From Candidatus Parcubacteria bacterium (lineage in GTDB: Bacteria; Patescibacteriota; Minisyncoccia; Phycocordibacterales; JAKAEA01): a DNA stretch of 64,000 nt. This document shows, one piece after another, positions 17,806-43,774 of the stretch (its first letter is position 1; each line of letters opens with the position of its first letter). The notes under the pieces were generated by a model. That model worked only from the letters and a program-made list of their open reading frames with translations. It made no database searches and was not told the origin of the DNA. The stretch is from positions 18,624 through 82,623 of the forward strand of contig CAWDXL010000021.1 in assembly GCA_963806325.1 (NCBI GenBank), read 5' to 3'. Made by a program: the position numbers and the translations under genes.

Positions 17806-19865
<2,060 letters not shown>

Positions 19866-22360: not shown

Positions 22361-22431
22361 AGGGGAGTAGTGGAACGGCACCACGGGAGGCTCATAACCT
22401 CTAAAAGCAGGTTCGACTCCTGCCTCCCCAA
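22361..22431 (+). tRNA. tRNA with CAU anticodon, possibly the initiator tRNA-fMet
   Basis: Hand-folded cloverleaf: acceptor aggggag/ctcccca (A1xA72 mismatch), D arm gtgg-aacggca-ccac, anticodon arm ggagg-ctcataa-cctct, T arm gcagg-ttcgact-cctgc. The 1:72 mismatch and two G-C pairs next to the anticodon loop are initiator-like. Confidence 0.75.
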
Positions 22432-22499
22432 CACGTCGCCGGTTTTCCTGTAATATGAGCATTGAATGAATACGCATTGCGTGGTATGTTTATTTTGCT

Positions 22500-22572
22500 G
22501 TCAGCGTAGCTCAGTTGGTAGAGCACAGGACTCATAAGCCTGGGGTCGTGGGTTCGATCCCCACCGCTGACA
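22500..22572 (+). tRNA. tRNA with CAU anticodon (elongator Met or lysidine-dependent Ile2)
   Basis: Acceptor gtcagcg/cgctgac, D arm gctc-agttggta-gagc, anticodon loop ctcataa, T arm gtggg-ttcgatc-cccac. There is one A-G mismatch at 31:39. Confidence 0.8.
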
Positions 22573-22595
22573 CATTTTTTAACCTTGGCATTTGT

Positions 22596-22623
22596 TTGAC
22601 AAAGCTTTTTATGAGTGTACGAT
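22596..22623 (+). promoter_or_regulatory. Sigma70-like promoter candidate (TTGACA, 16 nt, TACGAT) for the downstream noncoding transcript
   Basis: ttgaca at 22596-22601 and tacgat at 22618-22623. Confidence 0.4.
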
Positions 22624-22629
22624 TAACAA

Positions 22630-23024
22630 ACGGAACGACCGAATAGCTATTGGATGGCTGTCGGGCGACGTTCTATTTTAGATACGTCCTGTTATTTGGG
22701 AGGTTCGACATGCCGTCGAACAATATTGTGGGTAGTGGCATACGGGTGGTTTTTGGCGAAGTTGTTGGAGAGCCGAGTACTCCTGGTGCTCAGCGACTTC
22801 AACTTTCTCGGTGTGTCTGAGAGAGACGCCGAGGATGCCAAGCCGGCTGGAAATAGGATCAGAGAGAGGGTGGTTCTCCTTTCTCAGGAAGTCTGCTTTA
22901 CAGACGTCCCCAGAGGTGCACGTTTCCGACGGCGGTTCTGAAAATGGGTTTGGGCGCAGTTAATTATTTTGCTTGATCGGGAGGTCACATCTATGAGGGG
23001 GCAATCAACGCCCCCTTTTTTTTT
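22630..23024 (+). ncRNA. Candidate structured ncRNA of ~400 nt, identity unresolved
   Basis: This is a 525-bp gene-free gap between tRNA genes with a promoter-like element upstream. A strong terminator sits at 22997-23024 (gggggc/aatcaac/gccccc plus T9). It contains local hairpins such as gttcgac-atgcc-gtcgaac and gtctg-cttta-cagac. The only long ORF (22654-22941) has an Arg/Cys/Trp-rich, non-protein-like composition. Confidence 0.45.
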
Positions 23025-23098
23025 ATTGCTTCAAAAGCAAAAATCTGTTACATTCTAGGGTATCTTCTAAAGTCTTCTGTGGCTTTCCAAGAAAAATT

Positions 23099-23172
23099 GC
23101 GGTCGTAGCTCAACTGGTTAGAGCACTCGCCTGTCACGTGAGAGGTTGTGGGTTCAAGTCCCATCGGCCGCG
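23099..23172 (+). tRNA. tRNA-Asp (GUC)
   Basis: Acceptor gcggtcg/cggccgc (one G-U pair), D arm gctc-aactggtta-gagc, anticodon arm ctcgc-ctgtcac-gtgag, T arm gtggg-ttcaagt-cccat. Confidence 0.9.
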
Positions 23173-23203
23173 CAAAAGTTTCGATTTCTATTATGGTAGT
23201 ATT

Positions 23204-24942: not shown

Positions 24943-25038
24943 AGGGCTTATGATATGCGCGAACCATATTTTTTGCAAAAATACTGAAAATACCCTAATA
25001 TGAGGCGTACCCAGGTTTTTCAGTTCATTACAATATAT

Positions 25039-25313
25039 GCCGATGTAGCTCAGTTGGTAGAGCACGTCATTGGTAAACAAAATTGCCCTTCATCTTGGAA
25101 ACGAGATGCTGAAGCCCGAATAACGGTTAACGTCCATGTGTGTGGATAAGACCGTGGCGACAATCGCCCGAACGACTGACAAGGGGTGCTTCACTCATGA
25201 AAGCATGGGTATGCGCAAGATACAGTCTAACCCTCCTATAATCCGCCACGGCGGAGAAATGGAGGTAGATGTGAATGACGAGGTCAACGGTTCAATCCCG
25301 TTCATCGGCTCCA
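25039..25313 (+). tRNA. tRNA-Thr (GGU) interrupted after anticodon position 36 by a ~199-nt intron; encoded CCA
   Basis: The 5' exon is gccgatg-ta-gctc-agttggta-gagc-a-cgtca-ttggt (25039-25074). The 3' exon is aa-tgacg-aggtc-aacgg-ttcaatc-ccgtt-catcggc-t-cca (25274-25313). Joined, they give a perfect 73-nt cloverleaf with loop ttGGTaa. Confidence 0.85.
25075..25273 (+). ncRNA. Group I-like self-splicing intron in the tRNA-Thr anticodon loop (no ORF)
   Basis: The 5' exon ends in U and the insert ends in G. The insertion site between nt 36 and 37 matches known bacterial tRNA group I introns. The internal gcaagatacagtctaac resembles the conserved AAGAUAUAGUC core element (from memory). Several stem-loops are present (ggcga-caa-tcgcc, tccgc-cacg-gcgga, cctcc...ggagg). 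Confidence 0.65.
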
Positions 25314-25358
25314 ACATAAATAAAAGCACTGCATTTGATATGAGGTGCTTTTATTTAT

Positions 25359-25646
25359 ATGGATATACGTATATTGGGACAGAGGTTTGATGATTACTCG
25401 AAATATATTCGCGGACTTTCAAAGCACACGATTGCAAGAAATAGGCTAGTGCTCAGGCTTTACTGCAATTACAGCAAGGTTGCAAACATAGAGGAGGTGA
25501 CAGAAGAAAGCGTACAAGGTTTCTTTGTATACGGTAGAACGCAGCGTCAGTGGAAAGCAAATACTTTTATTGTATTCAGCTTGTCGCTCCGAGTGTTTTT
25601 TAGATGGGATTGGTTAGAAAATTTGGTAGAGAATACAAACATTTAA
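25359..25646 (+). pseudogene. Tyrosine integrase remnant (N-terminal SAM-like core-binding domain only)
   Basis: 95 aa with the pattern ...YIRGLSKHTIARNRLVLRLY...VTEESVQGFF...ANTFIVFSLSLRVFFRW. It is typical of phage-integrase N domains but has no catalytic domain. It lies directly 3' of the tRNA. Confidence 0.55.
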
Positions 25647-25836
25647 TTCATTAAGATAAGTTCGAACGCTGTCCTAGAGGATTAGAGAGATAGACCTCAT
25701 TACTCATACTAACATGATTTATAAATGACACATCTATTTTACTTTGTCAAAATAGTATGTTAAACTACCCGGTAGGTAGTTGTTTGAAATAAACCATAAA
25801 CCGAGCTTTTGGCTTACTCACGAAAGGATGTGTCTC

Positions 25837-27752
25837 ATGCAGGTTACACCTCGCATCTACCAAAACGTGGCTGTGGAAGTTGCACTCAAGGGTCTGCGAG
25901 GCAGCCTCAGGCGCGCTCTCGTAGTCCTCGCGACAGGTCTTGGCAAAACCTTGACCGTCGCGTTCATCACCAAGAAATTCCGTCCCAAAAAGACGTTGTT
26001 TCTGGTTCACAACAACTTCATCCTCAAGCATGCCTTGGATGAGTTTCGCCTGGTTTTCGATGAGAAGACAACGATGGCGACATACAATGGCATGTCGAGA
26101 GATGGAGCAAAGGAAGCCGACATGGTTTTTGCTACCTGGCAGACCATGAGTAAAAACCTCAAGCGCTGGGCACGAAACCACTTTTGATCTCATTATTGTG
26201 GATGAAGCTCATCACTCGGAGGCTGATACCTATCGACCGGTGACTGCGTATTTCACTGGAGCGAAGCTTGGTATCACTGCTACGCCTGATCGACAAGACG
26301 ATGCGGACATCCGTGACGTCTTTGGTCCGGAAGTGATCAATATCACGCTCGAAGAAGCTATTGCCCGCGGGTGGCTGCCTCGAATCGAGTATCACGTCAT
26401 CACTGACGAGAGTCTCGACGAGAACATGCTTCAGAAAATCGTTGGAGAGATCCGCGAAGGTAAGAAGCGTTTTACGATGGCAGAAGTCAACCGTCGTATC
26501 TTCATCAAGAAGCGTGATGTTGAGATCACTCGGATCATCAACGGCTACGCCGAGAAGGCTGTCGTGTTCTGCAGCTCGATCACTCATGCTGAGCGACTGA
26601 GCCAGACGCTTGACCTTGCCGCAACCTTTCATTGCAAGAAGGGTAGCGGACAGAAAGAGACCTACAATCAAAATCGTGATACTCTCGAAGATTTGAAGAA
26701 TGGGAAAGTTCGTCGGGTGTGCGCAGTCAATGCCTTCAATGAAGGTGTGAATGTGCCAACCGTCGGACTCGTCAGCCTTCTGTCGGGTCACTGGAGTCCT
26801 GACGATTTTCCGGCAACAGTTGGGTCGCGGGCTTCGTCCTGGAAAGGACAAGCTCATCGTTCTCGACTTTGTCGGGAATCTCGAGCGCATTCAATTGGTG
26901 CTTGAGATGATGAACAAGGTTTCTGATCTTCATGAACAATATACTCCTAGGGATGAAATTGAACGTGAAGGTTATGTCCGGCAGAAGTTTGAAGTATCCG
27001 GAAAAGGATTTGAGTTTACCTTCTCTGACAAGGTAGTGGACTTAATGAAAGTTTTGCAGCATTGCGAACGGCAATTTTACCCGACATGGCAGGAAGCCAG
27101 TGGAGTAGCTGCAAAATTGGGGATTAGAACCAAGGAGGAATACTACAGGCGTTATATGGAAGATGAACGTCTCCCAAGTAGTCCTTCGAGCATGTATTCT
27201 GATTTCCCCGATTGGTCGATGTTTCTGCGAGGAGAAATGCGCAAAAATTATTACCCAACTCTGGATCAGGCAAGGAAGTCTGTACAGAAGTTGGGTATTG
27301 TATCTTATCCGGAATACAAGAGGCGTTTTAAGGAGGACTCGCGTCTTCCAAGTAATCCGAACAGAGAATACCGCAATTTTCCAGGCTATCGAATCTTCTT
27401 GGGGGTGAGCAAGAAAAAGTACAGGACATGGCAGGAAGCCAGTCGTGCTGCTTTAAAGCTTGGAATAGACTCTCTTTCTGAATATCGTAAGCGTCGTAAG
27501 GAAGATCTTGCTCTTCCAGGTGATCCCAATTTCACCTACTCTGATTTTCCAGGCTATCGAGTATTCTTCGGTAGAAATTTTCAGTCAAAATATCAGTCCT
27601 GCATTTTGGCTGCAAAAGCTGCAAGAAAATTGGGTATTCACTCGGCGAGTGATTACAAGCAGCGTTATAAGCAGGACCCACTCCTTCCTGGCAACCCTTA
27701 CGGGATGTATGAGGATTTTCCGGGCTGGCCCCAATTCCTTGGCAAGAAGTGA
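25837..27752 (+). pseudogene. SF2 DEAH-box helicase (type III restriction res-subunit-like) with a C-terminal 4x ~57-aa repeat; two frame breaks
   Basis: Motif I LATGLGKT, motif II IIVDEAHH (restored by shortening T4 at 26182-26185), motif VI QQLGRGLRPGK in the third ORF. The C-terminal repeats follow the pattern W/LxxA...KLGI.S..EY..R.KED.RLP..P...Y.DFPGW..FLG. Confidence 0.75.
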
Positions 27753-27765
27753 AAGGACTTACTTT

Positions 27766-27803
27766 AGCCCCGCACATCAGAAATGGTGGAGCGGGGCTTT
27801 TCA
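27766..27803 (+). terminator. Hairpin terminator candidate after the helicase gene
   Basis: agccccgc...gcggggct (8 bp, 17-nt loop) followed by ttttcatt. Confidence 0.45.
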
Positions 27804-28102
27804 TTGTTAATAAAGATGAAACAGAAACCCCGAACCGAAAGGAATGGGATTTAATTATTATATAAAAAAGGCACCGGAGAATCTCATGGATTCAAGAACG
27901 GTGCCGTATCTAATCATTACTTAAATGAAGTGAAAGAAGACATGATTTCTCAAAATTATGCTGTTGTTCTTTCTATAAAAGACAAATCAAAAAGCGGTCA
28001 ACTTAGAAGTCAGTTACTTCAAAAAAATCAACTTGTTGAGTTAGTAGAGAATGCTATAAAAGTTAAAGCATAGTAGTTTTTAGAGTTACTTTTTATTAAA
28101 GA

Positions 28103-28140
28103 AAAAGAGCCGCCCAACCTGATGTTGAAACGGCTCTTGA
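28103..28140 (-). terminator. Terminator candidate for the minus-strand gene 28164-28565
   Basis: On the minus strand aagagccg...cggctctt (8 bp, 18-nt loop) is followed by ttttcttt. Confidence 0.45.
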
Positions 28141-28163
28141 ATTGCCCGAAGCATGGTGTGAGT

Positions 28164-28565
28164 TCACGCAGCCTCGCGAGTCTCCAGATAGTCCTGCACA
28201 GTGTAGACCATACCCTTGAGCTCTCCCTCAAGGACGGACATCGCTGAGATGCAGCGGGGTCGATCGATCTTGCCGCCACCTTCGGCTTGCTTGAGCGAAC
28301 GATCCAGATGATGGATCTGCTGAAGGCAGAAGTGAATGCGGAGTGCATAGGTACGAAGGTCTTCACCTTTGAGTGCCTTTGAAAGGGTTTGATCAACCCA
28401 TGCCGCATTGCGCTTCATTGTGTCGCGGAACTGGCGCACCAGCTCCACAGCGTTGGGCTGCATGAGAGCTTCAGCAAAGACAAGCGGATACGCCGCCTGT
28501 CGGAACGCGATCTGTTGATCGGTATCAAGGGGACTATTTGGAATAGCCTTAAATGGGCCGAGCAT
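28164..28565 (-). CDS. Hypothetical protein (island cargo)
   Basis: About 133 aa starting at MLGPFKAIPN, preceded by gaggtg 5-6 nt upstream. GC-rich. No recognisable motif. Confidence 0.5.
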   Translation of the reverse strand: MLGPFKAIPNSPLDTDQQIAFRQAAYPLVFAEALMQPNAVELVRQFRDTMKRNAAWVDQTLSKALKGEDLRTYALRIHFCLQQIHHLDRSLKQAEGGGKIDRPRCISAMSVLEGELKGMVYTVQDYLETREAA

Positions 28566-28959
28566 TAGGCACCTCACTTTCTTGTGGTTAAGGTTCTAGC
28601 GCTAATACTACGCAAAAAGCGAAGAAAGGCAAGAATACAGATAGGCTCAGAACGTGTCAGCCCCCGTGTCCCTTAAAATCGAGGCGTGTGCGATTGTGTC
28701 CCCGCTGTTCGACGAAGTGCCACTCCTGGAAGAGTGTTCGCAACGTGGGGCAACGTGACAAGCGTGTGAGGAAAACTAGGCACGATCATTGCGCAAAGCA
28801 GCGACCTTTTGATATAATTAGTTGGGTCTTTTTGGAGACTTTTATTGGGAGCAAAAACGGGTGATAAACTGGCCCCCACAACGACATACATTTAATGAAC
28901 TGAAACACGATTATAGCCAGTAAAATAAAGCCTTGTAATGGTTTAGACCTCGGGAGAAT

Positions 28960-29006
28960 ATTTGGTAATGACGAGGTCAACGGTTCAATCCCGTTCATCG
29001 GCTCCA
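28960..29006 (+). repeat. Direct repeat: intron-less copy of the tRNA-Thr(GGU) 3' half (att-like island boundary)
   Basis: ttggtaatgacgaggtcaacggttcaatcccgttcatcggctcca is identical to exon 1 nt 25070-25074 joined directly to exon 2 (25274-25313), with no intron. Confidence 0.85.
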
Positions 29007-29099
29007 ATTACTCATACTAAACAGATTTTTGTTGTAAATATTGATGTGTTATTGTGACGGGAGGTTGTTTTTATGTAAAAATTTTCTCAGATTTTGAAT

Positions 29100-30190: not shown

Positions 30191-31055
30191 TCAATACGCC
30201 AAAAAGGATGCATAAAAAAAGCCCGGGAATATTTTCCCGGGCCGGCTAAAGATAAAATATCCGCATGAAAATGTTATCCTGCTGCGAAAGCCCCTATCGT
30301 GCCGCCACTGTTTCCAGCAGCAGGAATATAGAGCGGAGCTTGAGTGCATGTAGGATGCAATCTTGCGCCGCACAGACCGGCTTGACAAGCTTCTCCCGAA
30401 TTTATTCACGAATAGTTCGACAGTGTGGGACTCGCAAAAAGCCGCATCTCGCATTTTGAGATAAGTGAGGAGTGCGGCGTGTGCGGTATCATTCAAAGAA
30501 ATTATCCTCGGTCTTGCGTTGATGCCCATGAGACGGAGAGTGCGTCCGTCCGCTTCGCTGTTGATCGCGCTTCGGGGAATCTCTATGAGCTCACTGATCT
30601 TTGCGCCGGTGGTATACATTATATGCATGATCGCCAGATCACGAGCGCCAGATAGGGTGGTTGCGTCGGGTATAGCGAGCACTTTTGCCATCTCTTCGGA
30701 CGTGATCGGTTTTACAGCCTGTCGCACACACTTGGGTGCGTACAGATGTATCGTCGGGTTAGCCGCTACCATCTTTTCGCCTGCCAGCCATTTGTACAGG
30801 GTCCTGAGGCTGGAACATTTTCTAGCAATCGTATTTGGGGAATATTGTTCATGCAGGCTGGAGGTATAGCGCCGTGGTCTGCTCGTTGGCCGACAGCATG
30901 AGTTGACACATGTTTGCACTGCAGTTTCCTTGCCTGAGATAAGCTTCATATTGCGCCACGTCGACACCGTAGCATGCGATCGTCTGATCGCTCATACGGC
31001 ACTCATGTCTGAGGTAGCTGAGAAACTGACCGACAAGCGTAAGCTGCGCTTCCAT
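30191..31055 (-). pseudogene. Decayed Xer-like tyrosine recombinase (multiple frame breaks, degenerate catalytic C-terminus)
   Basis: N-terminal piece 30849-31055 (LVGQFLSYLRHECRMSDQTIACYGVDVAQYEAYL). Middle piece with TIARKCSSLRTLYKWL, ARDLAIMHIMYTTGAKISELIEI. I could not recover the expected HxLRH...LLGH...Y box cleanly in any frame. Confidence 0.6.
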
Positions 31056-32214: not shown

Positions 32215-32287
32215 GCCACCTTAGCTCAGTTGGTAGAGCACCACTTTCGTAAAGTGGGGGTCCGCAGTTCGATCCTGCGAGGTGGCT
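32215..32287 (+). tRNA. tRNA-Thr (CGU)
   Basis: Acceptor gccacct/aggtggc, D arm gctc-agttggta-gagc, anticodon arm ccact-ttcgtaa-agtgg, T arm cgcag-ttcgatc-ctgcg. Confidence 0.9.
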
Positions 32288-32290
32288 CAC

Positions 32291-43534: not shown

Positions 43535-43636
43535 ATTACTTCACTTTTATATTTTATTCAAATTACAAAGCGGACTTCTCTTTACCCTCAAAATATGTTT
43601 AAATTGAACCACAACTAAATACGGTATAAGCCTAAA

Positions 43637-43774
43637 CCAGTGAGAAATCACTGGCATGGCATAAAATCCGCACGACACAAGAAAACCCGTTATCAGGGCG
43701 TGTCGTGCGTTGCTGGGAGAAATCCCAGCATGACCTTCGGGTCACCTGGTAGCGGGCTTTGTTGTATCCGCTAC
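43637..43774 (+). ncRNA. Cluster of five consecutive stable hairpins (candidate structured RNA or single-strand replication origin)
   Basis: The five hairpins are ccagtga-GAAA-tcactgg, cgcacgacac...gtgtcgtgcg (10 bp), gctggga-GAAA-tcccagc, tgacc-TTCG-ggtca and gtagcgg...ccgctac. The GNRA and UUCG tetraloops appear only when read on the plus strand. Confidence 0.5.

Follow-up and report, generated by a model that had tools for sequence, protein, structure and literature searches.

What divides the tRNA-Thr(GGU) gene in the 64,000-nucleotide stretch of Candidatus Parcubacteria DNA analysed here (the window)? Between positions 25039 and 25313 the two halves of a tRNA cloverleaf are held apart by 199 nucleotides, which a first-pass annotation had taken for a group-I-like intron in the anticodon loop. 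Our analysis leads to the same reading, to which we assign a probability of about 0.9: the insert is a compact group I ribozyme intron, free of open reading frames (ORFs), and interrupts the one tRNA-Thr(GGU) gene that could be found in the window. Comparative structure gives the group I interpretation good support, and Rfam gives it none.

When introns were allowed, ARAGORN called a tRNA-Thr(ggt) at 25039-25313 and placed an intron of 199 nt (25075-25273) behind its position 36. Removal of the insert in silico left a 76-nt tRNA-Thr(GGU), called by the same program, in which the acceptor, D, anticodon and T stems are all perfect, the discriminator base is U and CCA is encoded. This confirms a tRNA-Thr(GGU) gene at 25039-25313 with a 199-nt insert between nucleotides 36 and 37, and with it the split cloverleaf described in the first-pass annotation. 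The 5’ exon ends in U (...TTGGT) and the insert in G (...GATGTG), also as previously described. The insert contains no ORF of endonuclease size; the sole ORF lying wholly inside is an antisense GTG ORF of 40 codons, which bears out its earlier description as ORF-less. The gene is composed of the following parts:

25039-25074, forward strand: 5’ exon, with the acceptor 5’ strand, D arm and anticodon stem 5’ strand (ARAGORN in intron mode, and the spliced sequence)
within 25039-25074, forward strand: anticodon-loop nucleotides of the 5’ exon, U32 U33 G34 G35 U36 (ARAGORN)
25075-25273, forward strand: intron of 199 nt, ORF-less, with group I architecture (ARAGORN, the alignments and the covariance model R1, both described below)
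25274-25313, forward strand: 3’ exon, with A37 A38, anticodon stem 3’ strand, variable loop and T arm (ARAGORN)
25311-25313, forward strand: CCA at the 3’ exon end, which also holds the acceptor 3’ strand and the discriminator U (ARAGORN)

In scans of the window, neither default ARAGORN nor the Rfam tRNA model reported the split gene; their calls were two tRNA-Met, tRNA-Asp, tRNA-Thr(CGU) and tRNA-Gln. A second tRNA-Thr(GGU), which the first-pass annotation had proposed to look for, was found neither in the 64-kb window nor, as an intron-less copy, at any locus of the intron family described below. Three complete Patescibacteria genomes have published tRNA-Thr(GGU) introns at 36/37 (GCA_001029635.1, GCA_016700375.1 and GCA_030583745.1; Nakagawa et al. 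2026, mSystems, PMC13011429, Table 1). By tRNAscan-SE, each of these genomes has two Thr tRNAs and most Patescibacteria have three, and this count fits the split gene as the sole GGU copy. A second GGU gene is probably absent from the rest of the source genome as well.

Homologous introns were gathered in two independent database scans. The first ran a gapped pattern, the tRNA-Thr 5’ half joined to AGATANAGTC, against GTDB species genomes and returned 114 loci, of which ~106 are true members. From 100 of the 114, a clean tRNA-Thr(GGU) was obtained after removal of a 36/37 intron (158-266 nt) with U at position -1 and a terminal G; of the remainder, five are truncated at a locus end, one is a variant and eight are chance matches. 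Another chance match is L001, the first match of the viral scan. The record titles are mostly those of metagenome-assembled genomes (MAGs) of Saccharibacteria, Paceibacteria/Parcubacteria, Kaiser-, Taylor-, Nomura- and Vogelbacteria, and ARAGORN shifts the boundary in many members, assigning them to Arg(GCG), His or Pro. The second scan used an exon-independent pattern made from the intron core only, GAATNACGGTYAA...AGACCGT...GAACGACTGACA, against JGI metagenomes, and gave at least 120 loci. Among the matches listed, all 113 that could be resolved are tRNA-Thr(GGU) genes split at 36/37; on these cellular contigs the family sits only in this gene, and 95 of the 113 have the anticodon loop AUGGU, which lies outside the reach of the first pattern. 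Because such members escape that pattern, the family must be much larger than either scan shows. Just one identical intron is common to both sets. The window copy is identical to no retrieved sequence, its closest relative among them (L095) being 87% identical. With ~106 species genomes of GTDB and at least 113 contigs from metagenomes sharing the split arrangement, we reject chance as its origin.

A P1-P9 model, a check that the first-pass annotation had proposed, was drawn by hand on a structure-blind MAFFT alignment of 98 sequences (A1), in which the window intron can be aligned from end to end with 97 others. In a second, independent set of 109 sequences (A2) it aligns in the same way with 108 others, and the two sets together hold 205 distinct homologous introns. 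The aligned introns stem for the most part from MAGs labelled Saccharibacteria or Paceibacteria. The elements of the model, in window coordinates, are:

25072-25076 with 25083-25087, forward strand: P1, from the minimum free energy (MFE) fold and covariation in A1 and A2
25088-25097 with 25102-25111, forward strand: P2 hairpin, 8-10 of its 10 pairs changed on both sides
25098-25101, forward strand: L2 GAAA tetraloop, GNRA in nearly all homologues
25115-25117 (CCC) with 25183-25185 (GGG), forward strand: P3, paired in 99-100% of cells
25124-25128 with 25150-25154, forward strand: P4, invariant apart from the fifth pair (U.G to C-G)
25132-25135 with 25144-25147, forward strand: P5, enclosed by P4 and covarying, with A-rich J4/5 and J5/4
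25156-25160 with 25164-25168, forward strand: P6 hairpin, four of five pairs changed on both sides
25169-25173, forward strand: J6/7 CGAAC, preceding the P7 5’ strand
25174-25178 (GACUG) with 25223-25227 (CAGUC), forward strand: P7, the presumed guanosine-binding helix, invariant
25186-25216, forward strand: P8 hairpin, with outer pairs 25186-25189 with 25213-25216 (four of four covary) and an inner stem
25217-25222, forward strand: J8/7 AAGAUA, with AAGAUA, AAUAUA, GAUAUA and GACAUA as the only variants
25230-25231 (AC) with 25271-25272 (GU), forward strand: P9.0, covarying, encloses P9
25232-25236 with 25261-25265, forward strand: P9 hairpin, changed on both sides at four of five pairs in A1 and five of five in A2
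25273, forward strand: omega G, the last nucleotide of the intron, shared by all sequences of A1 and by at least 90% of those in A2

The P3 3’ strand and P7 close a P3/P7 pseudoknot, and the sequences support a complete P1-P9 fold of this kind, which gives the hand-drawn check a positive outcome. J7/3 has four nucleotides (ACAA), the P3 3’ strand directly abuts P8, J3/4 is A-rich like J4/5, and J8/7 AAGAUA is followed by AGUC. The element gcaagatacagtctaac lies at 25215-25231. The core-like element singled out in the first-pass annotation, AAGAUACAGUC, has a definite place in the model, as J8/7 plus the P7 3’ strand (25217-25227). The arrangement GACU...AAGAUA(C/U)AGUC presumably corresponds to the Tetrahymena core, the motif of which we take to be GACU...AAGAUAUAGUC. 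The precursor is also more stable in its fold than shuffled sequence (z = -3.8).

Covariation in both homologue sets bears out the group-I-like fold. Standard pairs make up 95.3% of cells in A1 and, once the partners are slid by 1-3 columns, 35-41%; changes on both sides occur at 33 of 53 pairs. The corresponding values for A2 are 95.0%, 33-44% and 39 of 53. None of 500 shuffles equalled the observed pairing values, and the slid controls together with the replication in a second set are stronger arguments than these shuffles. All variable helices change in a compensatory manner in A1 and A2, including P3, in which C-G becomes U-A at all three pairs in A2. The exon G34 G35 U36 and the first intron nucleotides A A pair with U U G C C in P1, so that the exon U noted earlier faces a G at the splice site (U25074.G25085). 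This helix, with exon G34 G35 U36 against intron G-C-C and U.G at the splice site, is already present in the MFE fold, and the U.G pair is kept in 98 of 98 homologues in A1 and 108 of 109 in A2; covariation is seen at both pairs on the intron side (GU/AU/UA/GC and GC/AU). At the other junction, the first P9.0 pair is GC in 75 and AU in 17 sequences of A1 and GC in 56 and AU in 44 of A2, and the second is UA in 53 and CG in 44 of A1 and CG in 52 and UA in 45 of A2. The P7 5’ strand GACUG is invariant in the 98 sequences of A1, in the selection of which this strand was unconstrained, and the P7 3’ strand CAGUC is invariant in the 109 of A2, where the pattern left it unconstrained. The two strands are perfectly complementary, and their invariance yields no covariation.

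These data bear on two other explanations. The gene might simply be disrupted, by a non-intron insertion or a dead intron, and persist as a pseudogene while tRNA-Thr(UGU) reads ACC and ACU; other broken genes of the window, namely ligA (17806-19865, four frames) and a helicase gene (25780-27752), would fit such decay, as would the missing match to the Rfam group I model RF00028 considered below. Against this, both exons are perfect, the anticodon-stem pairs of the exons show covariation and are formed in 100% of the homologues, the insert has neither terminal repeats nor a target duplication, and it is conserved with compensatory changes at the same site in 205 distinct sequences, which makes a pseudogene very improbable. 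Even less credible is a protein-spliced bulge-helix-bulge (BHB) intron of the archaeal or eukaryal type, or a group II intron. BHB introns commonly lie in the anticodon loop, but their canonical site is 37/38 rather than the 36/37 found here, and the junctions pair in P1 and P9.0, not in a bulge-helix-bulge. Bacteria, to our knowledge, have no tRNA splicing endonuclease. With its 199 nt the insert is too short to be a group II intron, and the Rfam scans gave no match to a group II model. Site, junction pairing in P1 and P9.0, size, perfect exons and compensatory conservation therefore led us to reject the BHB, group II and pseudogene readings.

With these set aside, assignment to group I draws on four features that serve to recognize such introns and are found here: the U.G pair in P1, the omega G, the order P3-P9 with its pseudoknot, and P9.0. 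The search with RF00028 (Intron_gpI) that the first-pass annotation had recommended came out negative, an outcome it had named as counting against its own proposal; the search has little diagnostic value for introns of this type. As a positive control, RF00028 at the gathering score was run on the T4 nrdB-td region (L240, 134000-150000) and found neither the td nor the nrdB intron. Both are textbook group IA introns. Since the same scan misses them, the RF00028 result is weak evidence against group I. The model likewise misses the published tRNA-Thr(GGU) introns of Patescibacteria (PMC13011429), and its seeds include none from bacteria (Williams, tFind preprint, bioRxiv 10.1101/2020.01.27.920355). 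A covariance model built from the intron family itself (R1), with the window copy among its seed sequences, scores that copy at 174 bits over 25063-25280 and non-seed members at 139-190 bits; it finds no further copy within the window.

Several points weigh against the assignment. RF00028 has no match in the window at the gathering score, and none at E<=10 either on 24950-25400 (451 nt) or on 14 other family members. R1 in turn has no match on the T4 td/nrdB region, so that no computed score bridges the family to canonical group I introns; that link is drawn by analogy from the architecture, from the presumed motif likeness and from the published detection with tFind. The shuffle and covariation counts take no account of phylogenetic relatedness. 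P7, and P4 outside its fifth pair, never vary, leaving covariation neutral on both helices, and P3 has only 3 bp. Finally, the papers cited here show splicing for no Thr intron.

The subgroup is a separate matter. In the Michel and Westhof classification, subgroup IA has the extra helices P7.1/P7.2 between P7 and P8. This trait is absent from the window intron, where the 4-nt J7/3 leaves no room between P7 and P8. Subgroup IC3 (Azoarcus-like) is marked by a minimal P1-P9 layout with P2 and by the tetraloop contacts L2-P8 and L9-P5. The layout and the covariation of L2 with P8 would fit it, and in a class with short P9, L9 is itself a GYAA tetraloop; no match to IC3 emerged at the level of sequence or model. 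In the published tree, the Thr introns sit on a long branch inside the IA clade, not in IC (PMC13011429).

A putative tertiary contact emerges from the two hairpins P2 and P8. A GAAA loop in L2 goes together with a receptor-like P8 internal loop, CUAA...UAUG, in 72 of 99 sequences, whereas none of 100 sequences with a GYRA L2 loop (GUAA, GCAA, GCGA or GUGA) has CUAA...UAUG in P8 (Fisher p = 6.5e-32, uncorrected). This internal loop resembles the 11-nt tetraloop receptor. The window copy combines its L2 GAAA with the P8 internal loop GCUUCA...UAUGC, a variant related to the tetraloop receptor, and docking of L2 into P8 is therefore predicted for this intron as well.

By analogy with characterised group I introns, splicing would proceed as follows. 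Transcription of the gene would give a 275-nt precursor, in which the internal guide UUGCC (25083-25087) would pair with the last three exon and first two intron nucleotides to form P1, placing U36 in the U.G wobble. The P4-P6 and P3-P7-P8-P9 domains would fold about the P3/P7 pseudoknot, probably braced by the docking of the L2 GAAA loop into P8. An exogenous guanosine held in P7 would attack after U36; P9.0 would then bring the terminal G (25273) into that pocket, where the freed 3’-OH of U36 would attack after G25273. Ligation of U36 to A37 would release the intron and yield a normal tRNA-Thr(GGU), with its encoded CCA, for cognate reading of ACC and ACU. The intron would on this scheme be self-splicing and would presumably require no protein.

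It is also conceivable, if unlikely, that the group I fold has been kept and self-splicing lost, the reaction depending on a protein cofactor or chaperone or running very inefficiently, with the supply of tRNA-Thr(GGU) limited or regulated as a result. The intron is minimal and its P3 just 3 bp long, and the published in vitro tests deal with Asn and Asp introns only and none of Thr type, their authors having speculated on regulatory roles (PMC13011429). On the other side, the 64 columns that are invariant in A1 take in all junctions known to be catalytic, P1 and P9.0 are kept, and tetraloop-receptor covariation is typical of small group I introns that fold autonomously. The apparent sole GGU copy in the three complete genomes would also lead one to expect efficient splicing. 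We accordingly retain an active, self-splicing group I intron as the preferred reading.

The intron occupies a conserved genomic setting. The order GatA, a 206-aa protein, tRNA-Met/Asp, tRNA-Thr(GGU) with its intron, tRNA-Thr(CGU) and PrfB is common to many Patescibacteria loci, and the neighbouring proteins in the window are 60-70% identical to their best homologues, which come from Paceibacterota MAGs. An exact-sequence search with the window's GatA had no match. Synteny and protein identity point to a Paceibacteria-like source that is absent from the retrieved sequences. In the window, tRNA-Met, tRNA-Met, tRNA-Asp, tRNA-Thr(GGU) and tRNA-Thr(CGU) follow one another (22361-23173, 25039-25313 and 32215-32288) ahead of prfB. 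The two Thr tRNA genes stand 6.9 kb apart; between them lie an inserted element, other genes and, at 30191-30967 on the reverse strand, a XerC-like integrase. Downstream of tRNA-Thr(GGU), a terminator scan found none, and a hairpin with a long loop and a run of T behind it can be seen by eye at ~25322-25357. A Mantel test of intron against PrfB distances gave rho = 0.17 (p = 0.002), a correlation so weak that vertical and horizontal inheritance cannot be told apart by it; vertical descent is tentatively favoured by the conserved site, by synteny and by the absence of an endonuclease gene.

Five family members (L011, L012, L014, L075 and L113) lie on contigs labelled Gammaproteobacteria, Bdellovibrionales or unclassified. 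They have tRNA-Thr(UGU) upstream, a UCC/GGA P3 and no Patescibacteria-type synteny, and L011 and L113 are without P9. Judging by these labels and contexts, the family is not confined to Patescibacteria.

A second copy of part of the gene lies downstream:

28962-29007, forward strand: intron-less half-tRNA, TTGGT plus the 3’ exon repeated perfectly over 41 nt (sequence repeat)

The perfect 41-nt direct repeat (25274-25314 and 28967-29007) spans the entire tRNA-Thr 3’ exon, and the ligated-exon junction TTGGT|AATGACG is thereby present as DNA at 28962-28973. The 3.7-kb segment between the repeats (25314-29006) contains a 95-aa N-terminal fragment of an integrase (25359-25646), homologues of which adjoin the tRNA on its 3’ side at four other loci. 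It also carries broken helicase ORFs in three frames (25780-27752). A metagenome contig of the Ga0172380-type set, L229, has a 41-nt repeat that starts from the exact 3’ splice site; in front of its copy ~7 kb downstream stands CATGGT, which is how the 5’ exon ends, with no intron in between. The segment 25314-29006 is thus probably a decayed integrated element with 28962-29007 as its attR, and its attachment site probably matches the spliced form of the tRNA and not the genomic one. Since these probable attachment sites (28962-29007 and that in L229) carry the intron-less junction, the intron splits what appears to be an integration site of the anticodon-loop type.

The intron-core pattern also matches four IMG/VR contigs, in which R1 locates introns scoring 104-111 bits:

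5991-6187 of contig L236, forward strand: phage-contig intron
8330-8536 of contig L237, reverse strand: phage-contig intron
3921-4129 of contig L238, forward strand: phage-contig intron
1046-1248 of contig L239, reverse strand: phage-contig intron

All four lie inside protein-coding genes, not in tRNA. Removal of 190 nt from L238, between GCAUGGGU| and ...ACAACG|, restores an ORF of 352 aa, for the product of which PHROGs and Pfam returned no family. The interrupted ORF of L237 has a weak match to Phage_capsid_4 and adjoins an SU10-type portal gene (E = 3e-33), an SU10 adaptor follows the interrupted gene in L238, and L236 and L238 carry the intron at different sites of homologous genes. From this gene order and the weak Phage_capsid_4 match of the L237 homologue, the interrupted genes are classed as of the major-capsid type, and the family appears to inhabit capsid-type genes of uncultivated SU10-like phages as well. 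That the ribozyme family moves between hosts and phages, and that its place in the anticodon loop matters for mobile DNA, we regard as a speculative and rather doubtful proposal. If true, the intron could influence where, or whether, elements that target tRNA-Thr integrate.

Two further features of the window are recorded here. The gene for NAD-dependent DNA ligase (ligA, 17806-19865) appears to be divided among four ORFs that overlap and differ in frame, which could reflect either gene decay or indel errors in the assembly. A LOOT RNA (RF03000, 78 bits) is found at 43629-43744, inside a block at 40-54 kb with a GC content of 0.30-0.38, compared with ~0.45 elsewhere; this low-GC block may be a foreign island.

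Being invisible to default tRNA finders and Rfam, the split gene would make its genome seem devoid of tRNA-Thr(GGU); a tRNA described for this reason as missing from a reduced genome of this type would be an artefact. The family also provides a small, well-conserved natural group I ribozyme with hundreds of natural variants and a structural model backed by covariation.

Among known systems, the T4 td and nrdB introns resemble the four IMG/VR family members in lying in phage genes; they differ in being undetected by R1, and the phage relatives described here sit in protein-coding genes rather than in tRNA. Closer by host are the introns within tRNA-Asn and tRNA-Asp of Patescibacteria (subgroup IA), for which self-splicing in vitro has been shown (PMC13011429). 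They share with the window intron the phylum, the anticodon loop and a mostly ORF-less make-up, and the published tree puts them together with the Thr introns. Their 35/36 site is one nucleotide upstream, however, they are detectable with RF00028, and their core reads ‘agagacuag...gagauaguCC’ instead of ‘CGACUGACAAGGG...AAGAUACAGUCUA’.

The Azoarcus tRNA-Ile and Agrobacterium tRNA-Arg introns (Reinhold-Hurek and Shub 1992) reportedly belong to subgroup IC3. They are similar to the window intron in their 36/37 site, their length of ~200 nt without an ORF, the 3-bp exon part of P1, and a minimal P1-P9 layout with GNRA-capped P2 and P9. The Azoarcus intron has an L2-P8 tetraloop-receptor contact, and a contact of the same kind is predicted here. 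The differences are the tRNA that is interrupted, the P3 of only 3 bp, P3-P6 sequences so unrelated that RF00028 and R1 fail to bridge them, and the placement of the Thr introns in the IA clade by the published tree. The first-pass annotation was right to equate the insertion site with that of these two introns, since the classical 36/37 sites are written ‘Ile2.5Ug’ and ‘Arg.5Ug’ in the preprint that expanded the four classical tRNA intron settings to 21 (Williams, bioRxiv 10.1101/2020.01.27.920355).

The closest counterparts are the published tRNA-Thr(GGU) introns of Patescibacteria, which were found with the tFind bacterial tRNA-intron model (Williams 2020, as used in PMC13011429); ‘divergent group I introns’ is a term that, going by its citation there, comes from Castelle et al. 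2018. Compared by description, the window intron is like them in host gene, insertion site and size class, and also in host group, to go by synteny and by its nearest relatives among Paceibacterota MAGs. Like them, it escapes RF00028 and default tRNA finders, and the homologue set here shows the same ARAGORN boundary confusion, with Arg(GCG) calls at 34/35. An intron in this position had been presented as a less familiar case for such bacteria, a claim that does not hold after this publication (PMC13011429); host gene, site, host group and the blind spot of RF00028 are already known, and as its kind has been published, the window intron adds an instance and not a concept. What is added here is the size of the family and its specificity for tRNA-Thr(GGU), the relatives in phage genes and the intron-less attachment-site copy, of which the last two may be the new parts, and, unlike the published account, which is without a secondary structure, a P1-P9 model backed by covariation.

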